A stretch of DNA of 58,942 nucleotides from a virus (taxonomy: Duplodnaviria; Caudoviricetes), in IMG/VR virus record IMGVR_UViG_3300032328_000544, positions 1 through 58,942 of that record; one strand, written 5' to 3'. Both the position numbers and the translations under genes were made by a program. The notes under the pieces were generated by a model. The model did not search any database, was not told the DNA's origin, and worked only from the letters and a program-made list of their open reading frames with translations. Shown here in pieces: positions 19,018-38,641 of the stretch; position 1 is the first letter of the stretch; the number at the start of each line of letters is the position of its first letter.

Positions 19018-19287
19018 TTATTCACGCGAGTCCATTTCTTTTTGACCTTCAGTTTTGCATCGAGGGCAGGTGAAGTAGGCAGTGTAAGAGCGCTGACCAA
19101 CGCACGAGGCGTTTACGTCTCCGCTAAATCCGCACATGTGGTTTCCGTCTTCTGGTGCACAGTAGTCGTTGCACTCGACACCTTCTGGGTGAGATGTCAC
19201 TTCAACTTCACAGTATTCGATGTTTGTTTCTTCGTCCCACTCTGAGTCGTCCACCCAGTCAGGTTCGAGTCTTGGTTCTCCGTACAT
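19018..19287 (-). CDS. small Cys-rich acidic protein
   Basis: AAGGA RBS; CPRC. Confidence 0.6.
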   Translation of the reverse strand: MYGEPRLEPDWVDDSEWDEETNIEYCEVEVTSHPEGVECNDYCAPEDGNHMCGFSGDVNASCVGQRSYTAYFTCPRCKTEGQKEMDSRE

Positions 19288-26181: not shown

Positions 26182-26229
26182 TTATTTTTTTCTGCAACAT
26201 TCGCCGTTACAGTCGTCGCAACCGCGCAT
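26182..26229 (-). CDS. 15-aa four-Cys micro-ORF
   Basis: MRGCDDCNGECCRKK; TAATG overlap with the nrdB stop. Confidence 0.4.
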   Translation of the reverse strand: MRGCDDCNGECCRKK

Positions 26230-27206
26230 TAGTTTTTCCCGTTCACTTCATAAGACGTGTTGGTTGACTCAAAGAAGTTGACCAACTGCAAGGTGTCATT
26301 AGCCGTAGCCATCCACTTTGCGGGGTTGCTGACGTTGTAGTGGGGGGCGAAGCCAAGTTCCTCAAGACGACGGTCAGCCATGTACTTCGTGTACGTGCTG
26401 ATGTACTCGTGGTTGAGTCCAAGGATTCCGTTGGGAAGCATAGCCTTGTTGTATTCAACTTCCATGTCCACAGCGTCAAGAATCATTTGCTTGACTTCAG
26501 CGACAAACTCGTCGGTGACAATCTCAGGGTTCTCTTCAAGAATGGTCAGGATGAGGTTGATTCCGAACTTGAGGTGGAGCGACTCGTCGCGAACAATCCA
26601 GTCCACGAGCGAACCGAAGTTACGCAGAAGATTGCGCTGACGGAACGACAGGGCGACCATAAAGCCCGTGTAGAACCAGATACCTTCCATGATTACCGAA
26701 TAAGCAATCAGGTTACGCAGGAAGTCCTGCTTTCCTTCAACCGTAGTAATGTCGAGACGCTCGTCAGACATACGCTTGATGTACTTAACTTCAAATGCTT
26801 CCTTGTTGGCGATTGCTGGGTGCTCGACGTGCTGAGCATAAATGGTGTCGCGGTCAACGGGGAACGTCTCAAGGACGTACTCGAACGACATGCAGTGGTT
26901 CGCTTCTTCCCACATCTGCTTCGCAAGGTAGAGATGCGTCTCCGCTGCGTTCAGGTACGGGTAGACGCCAAACGCCAGTGCCTTGTTGACAATCAGTTCC
27001 GAGGGGTTGAAGAACGACATGAGAAACGTAATTGCGTGCTGCTCTTCGTCCGTCATTTTTTTGAAGTCGGCAATGTCTTCACCCAACTGAATCTCGTTGG
27101 GGAACCAAGTATTGGCTACTGCTTGGTTATAAAGGTCCATCGCCCACTGATATCGGATTGGTTTGAGAAGCAATCCGTCTTGAATTCCCGTTCCTAGAAT
27201 TGGCAT
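26229..27206 (-). CDS. nrdB: ribonucleotide reductase beta subunit, class Ic-like (R2c)
   Basis: E70, E101-x-x-H104, F108 at the radical-Tyr position, MEGIWFY, RDESLH, C-terminal NFFE..Y. Confidence 0.92.
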   Translation of the reverse strand: MPILGTGIQDGLLLKPIRYQWAMDLYNQAVANTWFPNEIQLGEDIADFKKMTDEEQHAITFLMSFFNPSELIVNKALAFGVYPYLNAAETHLYLAKQMWEEANHCMSFEYVLETFPVDRDTIYAQHVEHPAIANKEAFEVKYIKRMSDERLDITTVEGKQDFLRNLIAYSVIMEGIWFYTGFMVALSFRQRNLLRNFGSLVDWIVRDESLHLKFGINLILTILEENPEIVTDEFVAEVKQMILDAVDMEVEYNKAMLPNGILGLNHEYISTYTKYMADRRLEELGFAPHYNVSNPAKWMATANDTLQLVNFFESTNTSYEVNGKN

Positions 27207-27307: not shown

Positions 27308-27928
27308 ATGGATGAAGAAAAAACAACCTCTCTCCCTTGGGAACCTTTGAGCAAGGCAGAGCCAGTAAACCCGCCCCCAGCACCCGAAAAAGGTCTGGCT
27401 AACATCGTTCAGGAAGGTTTTTTTGACGTTTCAAAGAGCGTCACTCCTTCGGAAGAACGCACCGTAGACGAAAAAACTGAATCGAAAATTTCTGGCAACA
27501 GAATTGACCCAGACTCTCGCGGGGTACTTCTTCTCGCAGTGTCTTTGGTAATGATTCTGATGATTTCATCGTTCGTCGTTTCGTTCTTCGGGATTTGGGG
27601 AATTGCCGCTGAAACCACAAATATCCCCCAGCCCATTACGTGGATTCCCGCACTGTTCCTTGACGCGGCAATCCTTGCTTACACAATTAGTTACTTTGTG
27701 TTCCAGTCTCGTGGTGAACCAGTGTGGCGAACAAGATTAGCGTTGTGGACTTTTGCACTTTTGTCTGTCGCTGCTAACATCGCACACACTATCCAAATCT
27801 TTACGCCTGAAACCTCTCTTATAAATATCATAGTTGGAATTGGAATTACGGCATCGGCACCTGTCGCTGTTGTCCTTGCTTCGGAAGAAGTCGCTCGTCT
27901 TGCCTTCAAAAAGCCACGCACTAAATAA
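27308..27928 (+). CDS. DUF2637-like four-TM membrane protein
   Basis: SF..I..A, W.PA.F.D, SVAANIAH, APVAV; leaderless TACAAT-N7-ATG. Confidence 0.65.
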   Translation: MDEEKTTSLPWEPLSKAEPVNPPPAPEKGLANIVQEGFFDVSKSVTPSEERTVDEKTESKISGNRIDPDSRGVLLLAVSLVMILMISSFVVSFFGIWGIAAETTNIPQPITWIPALFLDAAILAYTISYFVFQSRGEPVWRTRLALWTFALLSVAANIAHTIQIFTPETSLINIIVGIGITASAPVAVVLASEEVARLAFKKPRTK

Positions 27929-27935
27929 GTAGAAA

Positions 27936-27970
27936 CAAAAAAGCCCCTCGCTCACGCGGGGGGCTTTTTC
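27936..27970. terminator. bidirectional terminator
   Basis: AAAAAGCCCCTCG..CGGGGGGCTTTTT. Confidence 0.75.
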
Positions 27971-28039
27971 GTGTGTAGTTTGGGTGTCTTGGAGACCCAC
28001 TCCCTCAGAGGCTGGGGCGTCCACGCCTACACTACGCCG

Positions 28040-28112
28040 AGCGAATGCTTGGGATTTGAACCCAGACCTCTGACTTGGAAAGCCAGTGTTCTACCTAATG
28101 AACTTCATCCGC
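28040..28112 (-). tRNA. tRNA-Gly(TCC)
   Basis: Acceptor GCGGATG/CATTCGC, U73, D stem GTTC/GAAC, loop TTTCCAA; the T arm carries one extra nucleotide. Confidence 0.8.
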
Positions 28113-28114
28113 AT

Positions 28115-28167
28115 GAGGGCTTACGAGATTCGAACTCGTTCCGATATTAGTCGGCTCCTTTAGCCCT
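28115..28167 (-). ncRNA. D-armless mini tRNA-like element
   Basis: AGGGCT/AGCCCT acceptor-like stem, CCGA-CTAATA-TCGG hairpin, perfect T arm ACGAG-TTCGAAT-CTCGT. Confidence 0.6.
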
Positions 28168-28421
28168 ACCACTGCTCTATTTACTTTTACTAAGTATCGC
28201 TGTACCTAGTAAATCAACCATAATCATTAAACACTGACTTGTCAAATTGACTCGCGAGGTCAAAACTTTCCGCTACCACAGTTGGTCAGGGGACGATGCT
28301 AACGGCATACACCATTGGCAAGCAGATACTGTATTTATTACTATAATATGTAACCCATTTTCATGGGTTGGCGTAGCCCCTCCACACTGCTAATCAAATA
28401 GGAATGCTTCGGGGCATAGCC
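28168..28421 (-). ncRNA. putative structured RNA of unknown class
   Basis: No ORF; GAAA-tetraloop hairpin, 11-bp stem with G-U, nested stems; lies between tmRNA and the tRNA-like element. Confidence 0.45.
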
Positions 28422-28422
28422 G

Positions 28423-28775
28423 TGGACGTGGCGAGATTCGAACTCGCGTCCAACCACATTTCCACTGTTCTTCTACACGCTTAGGTAGTTTGTTTTGTAT
28501 GTTCGGTGATTGACCTACCAGACACCGATTCAGACTCAATTTAAATATGTCGGCTTGAGCCATTAGCCGTACTGCTTTGGTGTCCTATTTATCTGAAACC
28601 CGACTGCCCACTTAGGACTAGTGCTTTGTCGGGGGCTACTGACTACTTATTACTAAGCAGCGAGAGCGAATGCGGAACGAGTCTTAGCATTTATTTTTGT
28701 TGACGGGTTCAAGAGATACCGTCATCTCTGCGTGCTTCACCAGATTTAATGTGACTGTCGATACCAGTCACGCCC
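28423..28775 (-). ncRNA. ssrA: tmRNA (tag AKTRSAFALAA)
   Basis: Acceptor GGGCGTG/CACGTCC-A with G3-U70, 5' TCGAC, GGAC-GCGAG-TTCGAAT-CTCGC T arm, tag ORF 28688-28653 ending LAA; 353 nt. Confidence 0.95.
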
Positions 28776-28786
28776 TAGTTGTTTCT

Positions 28787-28921
28787 CTATGTAGTTTTAT
28801 TTACGAGGCGACGCTTCTCAACGTCGAACTCTTTGGGGCGACTCTTGTTTGCCTTACCGTTCTGACGGTCAGAGTTACTTCCCTTAGCGGGTTTCTGCCC
28901 GCCACCTTTTCCTTTTGCCAT
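28787..28921 (-). CDS. 44-aa basic protein
   Basis: MAKGKGGGQKPAKGSNSDRQNGKANKSRPKEFDVEKRRLVNKTT; TAACAT-N6-ATG. Confidence 0.65.
   Translation of the reverse strand: MAKGKGGGQKPAKGSNSDRQNGKANKSRPKEFDVEKRRLVNKTT

Positions 28922-31203: not shown

Positions 31204-31204
<1 letters not shown>
30845..31204 (+). CDS. virion structural/baseplate-like Ig-fold protein
   Basis: YNI...QGATF..W....PINLT.YTARM..YDLE...RLIEG. Confidence 0.65.
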
Positions 31205-34398
<3,194 letters not shown>

Positions 34399-37948: not shown

Positions 37949-38641
37949 ATGCCCGAAGGAAAAGCACTATTATATGCACGAGTATCGACTCAACTTCAAG
38001 TAAATGATGGGGTATCGCTTGACGTACAAGAACGCCAACTAAATTCTGCGGCAGAGGTTGCTGGCTACACAGATTTAGAACTAGTGCGTGAGGAGGGTCG
38101 TTCGGGTAAGAACATTTCTGGTCGCCCAGCCCTGACGGAGACTCTTCGGCGTCTAGATAAAGGCGAAGCCCACGCGCTGTTTGTTACCCGCATTGACCGA
38201 CTTGCCCGCTCAACCAAAGACTTCCTAAACATTATTGACCGAGCAAATGCCAATGGGTGGAGGCTCGTAATGCTGGACTTGAACCTAGACACAGCAACAT
38301 ATCAAGGGAGGTTTGTCGTCACAATTATGAGTGCCCTCGCTGAAATGGAGCGAGGGATTATTGCTGAACGCCAGAAAGACGTACATAAAGATAGGCGCTC
38401 TCGCGGAATTAAGTGGGGAGTAGACATTGGTCCAATGAACAAAACCCCCGACGATATTCGTCAGCGAGTTGTCGCTGAAAGAAATTCGGGGGCTTCGTAC
38501 CGTAAGATTGCTGACGGACTAAACCGAGATGCTATTTCTTCGCAGAACGGCGGGGCTTGGTACCCGACGACGGTAAAGAATCTTCTGGCTGCAATTCAGA
38601 AGGAACTGGAACATTTACCTGATTCTGAATCTCAAGCGTAG
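37949..38641 (+). CDS. serine recombinase (resolvase/invertase size)
   Basis: YARVST, SG...RP.L, RIDRLAR, AEMER, C-terminal HTH SYRKIADGLN. Confidence 0.9.
   Translation: MPEGKALLYARVSTQLQVNDGVSLDVQERQLNSAAEVAGYTDLELVREEGRSGKNISGRPALTETLRRLDKGEAHALFVTRIDRLARSTKDFLNIIDRANANGWRLVMLDLNLDTATYQGRFVVTIMSALAEMERGIIAERQKDVHKDRRSRGIKWGVDIGPMNKTPDDIRQRVVAERNSGASYRKIADGLNRDAISSQNGGAWYPTTVKNLLAAIQKELEHLPDSESQA

Follow-up and report, generated by a model that had tools for sequence, protein, structure and literature searches.

Several described RNAs share parts of the tRNA shape. The MALAT1 mascRNA is tRNA-like, does not decode and is conserved. The D-armless tRNAs of animal mitochondria possess a 5-bp anticodon stem with a 7-nt loop and decode. 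Elbow-less tRNAs exist, and RNase P is described as reading the acceptor/T-arm stack and measuring from the elbow (PMC4919913). The t-elements of plant mitochondria, which have a non-decoding tRNA-like fold, are described as marking transcript ends (Forner et al. 2007, PMC1920247). In phages, tRNA genes occur in tandem together with degenerate copies, and genetic elements that integrate are described as a common source of partial tRNA genes (PMC9897764). The same origin is given for fragments of tmRNA genes by Hudson, Lau and Williams (2014, PMC4131195), whose account of mycobacteriophage DS6A presents a TLD-only tmRNA with no coding part, outlined as acceptor stem, unpaired D-analogue loop, closing helix and T arm; a similar molecule is reported there to inhibit tmRNA, chargeable or not.

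Here we analyzed a 53-nt element from the IMG/VR record of an uncultured phage (the window, i.e. the whole record of 58,942 bases, estimated to be 44% complete). The element is tRNA-derived or tRNA-shaped, and each of the above systems resembles it in part. In position, spacing, T arm and acceptor pairing, it is like the tandem phage tRNAs and their degenerate copies, and it likewise lies in a tRNA/tmRNA island that varies between relatives. Unlike the partial copies as described (PMC9897764), it retains the two acceptor strands but not the middle part, and neither a parent nor a one-step deletion route was found for it among 73 distinct tRNAs. With the t-elements it shares a non-decoding tRNA-like fold, and it may likewise be a substrate for RNase P or RNase Z, whose cuts would produce transcript ends as in t-elements and mascRNA. 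However, those RNAs have mapped cleavage sites, whereas the element shows no conservation and has no Rfam match; moreover, its host would be a bacterium and its neighbour is a real tRNA. The outline of the DS6A RNA, as described, is also that of the element, which adjoins a tmRNA gene, but compared with tmRNA the element has no G3.U70, a discriminator C in place of A and no model match. Finally, the succession of acceptor, short replacement loop, hairpin and T arm in the D-armless mitochondrial tRNAs is found in the element as well, but its hairpin has 4 bp with a 6-nt loop and its variable region a single nucleotide.

Fold and classification of the element

The features of the locus are collected in Table 1. 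When the minus strand was read again, the letters and the segmentation of the element given in a preliminary description proved exact, as did its placement directly before tRNA-Gly(UCC): the gap is 2 nt (AT), on the same strand. The lack of a D stem and the 6-nt loop noted there were borne out as well. Seven unpaired nucleotides stand in place of the D arm, the inner loop is CTAATA, and the minimum free energy fold of 28170-28113 (-17.4 kcal/mol) is the proposed fold, which is kept in 103-nt and 309-nt contexts. For 28170-28113, the fold energy has a z of -1.9, and 9 of 200 shuffled sequences were equally stable. As for the stems, the T arm is indeed perfect and canonical (5 bp, closing pair G53-C61, T-T-C-R-A loop), while the acceptor-like stem consists of six Watson-Crick pairs and an A.A mismatch at 7:66, not of seven pairs. 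Every one of the element's 15 pairs is of the Watson-Crick type, with an intact T loop. Its core has A at the U8 position, no 7-nt anticodon loop and a 1-nt variable region. A U occupies position -1 of the 5' end (A28167). The linker sequence AAGGAG was considered as a ribosome-binding site and rejected, there being no start codon at a usable spacing downstream.

Table 1 Positions of the element, its segments and neighbouring features in the window
Feature	Position	Strand	Details and basis
RNR small-subunit gene	26229-27206	minus	homologue search
Inverted repeat I1	27927..27980	both	G+C-rich, flanked by A run and T run; repeat scan, sequence
tRNA-Gly(UCC)	28039..28112	minus	ARAGORN; Rfam RF00005, 59.4 bits
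D-armless tRNA-like element	28115..28167	minus	53 nt; sequence and fold
Element, AGGGCTA	28167-28161	minus	sequence
Element, AAGGAG	28160-28155	minus	sequence
Element, CCGA	28154-28151	minus	sequence
Element, CTAATA loop	28150-28145	minus	sequence
Element, TCGG	28144-28141	minus	sequence
Element, single A	28140	minus	sequence
Element, ACGAG	28139-28135	minus	sequence
Element, TTCGAAT T loop	28134-28128	minus	sequence
Element, CTCGT	28127-28123	minus	sequence
Element, AAGCCCT	28122-28116	minus	sequence
Element, unpaired C (discriminator)	28115	minus	sequence
Element, acceptor strands	5' 28167-28162, 3' 28121-28116	minus	A28161 faces A28122
Element, linker	28161-28155	minus	7 nt, AAAGGAG; unpaired, in place of D arm
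Element, inner hairpin	28154-28141	minus	4 bp, 6-nt loop
Element, T arm	28139-28123	minus	5 bp, loop TTCGAAT
tmRNA-element spacer	28168..28421	minus	254 nt; ORF list, Rfam, fold
Promoter-like site TTGACA-17-TATGGT	28217..28245	minus	consensus scan, 10/12 matches
One-piece tmRNA	28422..28775	minus	ARAGORN; Rfam RF00023, 125.6 bits, E 9.9e-49

Neither ARAGORN nor the covariance models, both named as checks in the preliminary description, recognized the element. It was not called by ARAGORN in standard mode, with default or lowered thresholds, nor did the -mt, -mtx and -mtd modes give a call at 28167-28115 on the minus strand; the mitochondrial modes returned an overlapping call, folded differently and extending into tRNA-Gly, and, at low threshold, another on the plus strand. 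In Rfam, no tRNA, tmRNA or other tRNA-like model matched the element at E up to 10, whether 1001 nt or 76 nt were searched.

Compared with a canonical tRNA (RF00005), the element thus lacks the D arm, the 5-bp anticodon stem with 7-nt loop, and detection as such. Nor does it receive the call with a readable anticodon that would place it among D-armless mitochondrial-type tRNAs. As for the TLD class, position 3 pairs as G3-C70 in either stem register instead of G3.U70, a match to RF00023 including the D-analogue loop sequence is absent at E up to 10, and the linker AAAGGAG is unlike the tmRNA's own CTGGTATCGAC. The earlier suggestion of a tmRNA-TLD mimic accordingly fails in the features tested, namely the third pair, the discriminator C and the tmRNA model. 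The t-element/mascRNA class is matched in its tRNA-like fold with an acceptor/T-arm stack (six pairs and a mismatch, then five), but conservation of the fold was not found in the 33 related records and three collections searched. Features of an att-site tRNA fragment were lacking too, as no Phage_integrase domain was present in the window and the 22-nt 3' string had no exact match in the genome collection.

The RNA cassette and related phages

On the minus strand, the element belongs to an RNA cassette with the order tmRNA, spacer, element, tRNA-Gly and terminator. The tmRNA gene, which the preliminary description had not mentioned, lies 254 nt upstream of the element on the same strand. It is complete, with the tag AKTRSAFALAA, an acceptor G3.U70 and no encoded CCA. 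The T arms of the tmRNA and the element have an identical 15-nt core (direct repeat D1) and their acceptor stems differ; this core is also present in unrelated tRNAs, namely a tRNA-Gln (locus L041) and a tRNA-Leu (L025).

The spacer contains no ORF of at least 60 aa and no Rfam match. It folds with a z of -2.65 (1 of 200 shuffles equally good), but its plus strand folds well too (z -2.17), and its structure is therefore not strand-specific evidence of an RNA. It begins with two hairpins, the second of which is followed by a weak U-rich run and could, judging from the predicted fold, be the tmRNA terminator. The promoter-like site is located about 50 nt upstream of the element; since the region has no more of these sites than expected (2 found in total, 2.1 expected), it is only a lead. 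At the other end, the inverted repeat I1 is terminator-like both ways, closing the RNA cassette on the minus strand and a 229-aa gene on the plus strand. Rfam leader models aligned solely to this terminator hairpin. About 22 bases following tRNA-Gly are conserved between the window (28017-28040, minus strand) and one related record (G014/L015, at 12484-12505 of L015, minus strand); the folds of this trailer differ between the window and G014, and their significance is not clear.

Three short matches within the cassette were rejected as being at chance level, the expectation for perfect 10-mer complement pairs being about 0.5 per 1 kb by our own estimate: a 10-nt perfect complement between the element (28134-28143, covering the hairpin 3' strand and the T stem) and the tmRNA tag frame (28673-28682), 10 nt shared identically by tRNA-Gly and the tag frame, and 12 nt over which the 3' end of the tmRNA is complementary to the trailer of tRNA-Gly.

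Among 20 of the 70 larger ORFs in the window, PHROG matches included DNA polymerase, helicase, primase, exonucleases, DNA methyltransferase, endolysin and a WhiB-like regulator. This gene content apparently fits a lytic-type actinobacterial phage. No tyrosine integrase and no SmpB gene were detected in the window. A small Resolvase-type serine recombinase gene (37967-38407, plus strand, 117 bits) is situated about 10 kb from the element and a few kb from a gene for a 1064-aa protein with collagen-like Gly-X-Y repeats (31204-34398, plus strand). The latter is probably a tail fibre, and the vicinity of the two genes could indicate an invertase-type switch. The RNR small subunit encoded near the cassette is 95-96% identical (aa) to that of phages otherwise nearly without nucleotide similarity to the window, which suggests exchange of this gene between phages. 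No match to the RNR large subunit was found in the window.

For comparison, 33 viral loci were gathered through this neighbouring RNR small-subunit gene (63-96% aa identity). They share little else with the window at the nucleotide level, and six relatives inspected as whole records have, apart from RNR and some genes of about 70% identity, little in common with it. Because the likeness is mainly confined to RNR, this is a weak comparison set, and absence from it says little. ARAGORN detected no tmRNA in the loci, and none of the 33 whole records exceeded the RF00023 cut-off. Positions 28113-28900 of the window had no nucleotide match in the 33 loci. When the 871-nt cassette was compared with the whole relative records (E <1e-3), matches came only from G014 and from G024/G025. 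In G014, they comprised a tRNA-Gly (77% identical) and a 30-nt piece of the terminator region. The 35-nt, 86% match in G024/G025 was rejected as homology: it covers the T arm and 3' terminus of a tRNA-Leu(CAA) and runs on for about 10 bases, and we read it as a common T-arm variant. In G014/L015, a G+C-rich hairpin stands where a tRNA-like element would be, upstream of the homologous tRNA-Gly; the element is thus not needed for that tRNA. In another relative (G026, one of the six whole records), homologues of both genes flanking the cassette (52% and 39% aa identity) are only 45 nt apart, with no RNA cassette between them and no tRNA anywhere in the record. The RNA cassette is accessory and located at a rearranged junction, and the locus as such is found in none of the relatives. 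The neighbouring 173-aa gene, used as a protein query, led to no relative, and alignment of the 229-aa gene yielded only G026 again.

Tandem same-strand tRNA pairs separated by 0-6 nt appeared among the relatives (21 pairs in 11 of the 33 loci, some of them near-duplicates), and the number of tRNA genes varied from 0 to 20 per record in the 20 records examined whole. Gain, loss and decay of tRNAs are evidently frequent in this phage group. Two unusual tRNAs were also encountered. A tRNA in L029 (5836-5909, plus strand), the third in a tight tandem of three, has an 8-nt anticodon loop and is reported by ARAGORN as tRNA-??? with the four-base anticodon gacg. In L025/L026 (3707-3781, plus strand), a 75-nt tRNA-Leu(CAA) is devoid of the long variable arm typical of bacterial leucine tRNAs.

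Chance expectation and search for homologues

The occurrence of similar folds by chance was assessed with a descriptor consisting of a 5-bp T stem closed by G-C, a TTCRANY loop and a 3' strand that immediately follows the T stem and forms at least 6 pairs with a 5' strand, with a linker of 8-34 nt and G-U pairs allowed. It matched in 19 of 1000 first-order-Markov copies of the window (both strands), a count which leaves out the placement 2 nt before a real same-strand tRNA gene. There are four GTTCRAWTC motifs in the window, all on the minus strand (in tRNA-Arg, tRNA-Gly, tmRNA and the element), compared to 2.79 occurrences expected per window. A fifth T-arm-like hairpin (19259-19275, plus strand) lacks a paired acceptor and is in line with the 0.22 such hairpins per window expected by chance. 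The element is the only all-Watson-Crick reduced acceptor and T-arm match in the window and in 20 records (1.45 Mb). Its acceptor and T arm are real tRNA signatures, beyond chance.

The situation is different for the inner hairpin. In 10 of the 19 matching simulated windows, an inner hairpin of at least 4 bp was present as well. A 4-bp hairpin arose in 46% of shuffled versions of the 21-mer core if G-U pairs were counted and in 13% if all pairs had to be Watson-Crick; in 5.7%, a hairpin of the latter kind ended no more than 2 nt from the T stem. As this hairpin is close to the random 21-mer rate, the "anticodon arm" of the element may be no tRNA signature. The earlier argument from perfect pairing against simple decay is weakened by the acceptor mismatch and by the near-chance hairpin, and also because a recent deletion would leave stems intact.

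With a covariance model built from the element (R1), its own record and the 33 related ones yielded no match (E up to 10) other than the element itself. The next-best hits to R1, in 671,480 bases of collected loci, were full-length tRNAs with at most 22 bits. Three sequence collections were scanned by exact pattern matching only. The viral collection gave no match to the T arm plus acceptor of the element, to its 5' half, to the tmRNA 3'-end pattern or to a two-anchor degenerate pattern with 20-50 nt between acceptor and T arm, and the tRNA-Gly 5' pattern matched only G014. With the two-anchor pattern, five matches were found in the metagenome collection, all full-length tRNAs (Gln, Trp three times, Pro), and two in the genome collection, judged by their length to be full-length tRNAs; all of these are 71-74 nt long, and the pattern itself accounts for most of their likeness to the element. 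We do not put forward the best of them, the tRNA-Gln of L041, as a parent; its contig is otherwise unrelated and carries a different tmRNA. The 22-nt string of T arm and acceptor 3' strand had no exact match in one genome each of 185,579 species.

A sequence-blind descriptor, applied to 20 records (1,447,534 bases), produced four matches outside called genes, one of which is the element; the other three are G-U-rich (G009 and G016/G017, these two having one shared sequence), and reversed decoys gave one match. The element is a singleton in the searched data, and reduced tRNA-like elements are no habit of this phage group. In the literature, as covered by titles and the beginnings of abstracts, we found no report of a phage tRNA lacking the D-arm or of an armless phage tRNA.

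Origin and possible roles of the element

We conclude that the element is a real D-armless, tRNA-derived fold and a singleton, most likely a leftover tRNA gene rather than a proven new RNA. The three roles suggested for it in the preliminary description gained no support from the data searched. More specifically, we assign a probability of about one half to its being a shrunken tRNA relic, the upstream partner of a tandem pair with tRNA-Gly. The 2-nt gap equals the spacing of tandem tRNAs in related loci, so that the element fills the slot of an upstream tandem tRNA. The relic is favoured because the element is unique, occupies this slot within a fluid tRNA island and has no counterpart next to the tRNA-Gly of G014; the flanking genes of G026 without a cassette and a core devoid of tRNA hallmarks support it further.

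According to this scenario, a tandem of some tRNA and tRNA-Gly would have existed inside the accessory RNA cassette of an apparently actinobacterial phage. The shrunken copy would have retained an acceptor/T-arm stack of canonical length, the part read by host tRNA-maturation enzymes. It would be co-transcribed with tRNA-Gly, and RNase P would cut before A28167 (with U at -1) and before G28112 of tRNA-Gly, setting free an RNA of about 53-55 nt. The first of these cuts would follow from the measuring of the acceptor/T-arm stack by RNase P; cleavage of the element is probable and is common to the relic and to a processing signal. With no D arm and a 4-bp "anticodon" hairpin with a 6-nt loop, the released RNA would be unable to decode, and its release would be a by-product, presumably without function.

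Several points count against the relic. Phage genomes tend to shed useless DNA. That relatives lack the element carries little weight, given how little they have in common with the window outside RNR, the 44% completeness of the record and collection scans that depend on exact pattern matches. No clean path of a single deletion led to the element from any of 73 distinct tRNAs (global alignment with one cheap long gap), and its 21-nt core is not obtained by losing the D arm alone or the anticodon arm alone. In the absence of a one-step route, a relic would need several steps. The strongest point is the combination of a flawless top half with a core lacking tRNA hallmarks, as an all-Watson-Crick top half is the pattern that would also be expected under selection on the acceptor/T-arm half. 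The abutment of a Watson-Crick hairpin on the T stem, rare among shuffled cores (see above), is a further one.

As a tentative alternative, the element might be a selected cis-acting processing signal resembling t-elements or mascRNA. Its minihelix would recruit RNase P, together with RNase Z or exonucleases, so as to set the 3' end of the upstream leader/spacer RNA and to leave a short clean 5' leader on pre-tRNA-Gly. The canonical-length acceptor/T-arm stack and the U at -1 are consistent with such a signal in view of how RNase P is described to measure (PMC4919913), and so is the role of t-elements at transcript ends as described for plant mitochondria (PMC1920247). That all 15 pairs are Watson-Crick even though the core is without tRNA hallmarks points in the same direction, as does the better-than-shuffled folding of the upstream spacer, although the plus strand of the spacer also folds. 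What speaks against a signal is that the element is a singleton with no conservation, that the homologous tRNA-Gly of G014 does without it, and that tRNA-Gly has its own RNase P site. Furthermore, being 254 nt from the tmRNA 3' end, the element cannot define that end.

Put more broadly, it appears rather unlikely that the element is a selected D-armless mini-tRNA-like RNA released by RNase P and acting with the phage's own tmRNA/tRNA cassette, be it as a punctuation signal or as a stable sponge for a host tRNA-binding factor. A trans-acting decoy in particular seems improbable. This would be a stable mini-tRNA-like RNA that titrates a host factor, for instance EF-Tu, SmpB (bound through TLD mimicry), a tRNA-modifying enzyme, or a nuclease or toxin directed at tRNAs. 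It would be in keeping with the TLD-like outline of the element (acceptor, GG-containing unpaired loop, closing hairpin, T arm), with its presence in the same cassette as a tmRNA whose 15-nt T-arm core it shares, and with the inhibition of tmRNA reported for a molecule similar to the DS6A RNA (PMC4131195). Against this, the third pair is G3-C70 and the discriminator C, no tmRNA model is matched even in the 76-nt search, and the shared core also occurs in unrelated tRNAs. A tmRNA that looks functional would be odd in one phage together with its inhibitor, the 6-nt loop fits no known nuclease target among those that could be tested, the window encodes no SmpB, and the element is a singleton.

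We consider it very improbable, and disfavour the idea, that the element is an att-type fragment, that is, an attP-type copy of the 3' portion of a host tRNA gene left by site-specific recombination. In the published accounts, integration is indeed a common origin of partial tRNA genes (PMC9897764) and also gives rise to tmRNA gene fragments (PMC4131195), but the window has no tyrosine integrase, its only recombinase being the small Resolvase-type gene some 10 kb off, the 22-nt 3' string had no exact match in the species genomes scanned, and an att fragment would lack its own complementary 5' acceptor strand. A fold arisen by chance, without tRNA ancestry, is disfavoured as hardly credible, for in spite of the modest energy z and of the 2.79 GTTCRAWTC sites expected anyway, the acceptor and T-arm combination appeared in only 19 of 1000 simulated windows with G-U allowed, all four GTTCRAWTC sites fall within tRNA-Arg, tRNA-Gly, the tmRNA and the element, and the latter is 2 nt from a tRNA gene.

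If the element is a relic, it offers a snapshot of gene gain and loss in phage tRNA islands, and a caution that neat tRNA-like folds beside tRNA genes need comparative support before functional claims are made. If it is selected, a D-armless, non-decoding, tRNA-shaped RNA would join the phage repertoire beside a rare phage tmRNA. It would then provide a simple system for the action of RNase P, the CCA-adding enzyme and SmpB on the top half of tRNA, and a counterpart, in a bacterial virus, of the t-elements and armless tRNAs of organelles, in a shape that tRNA finders miss.
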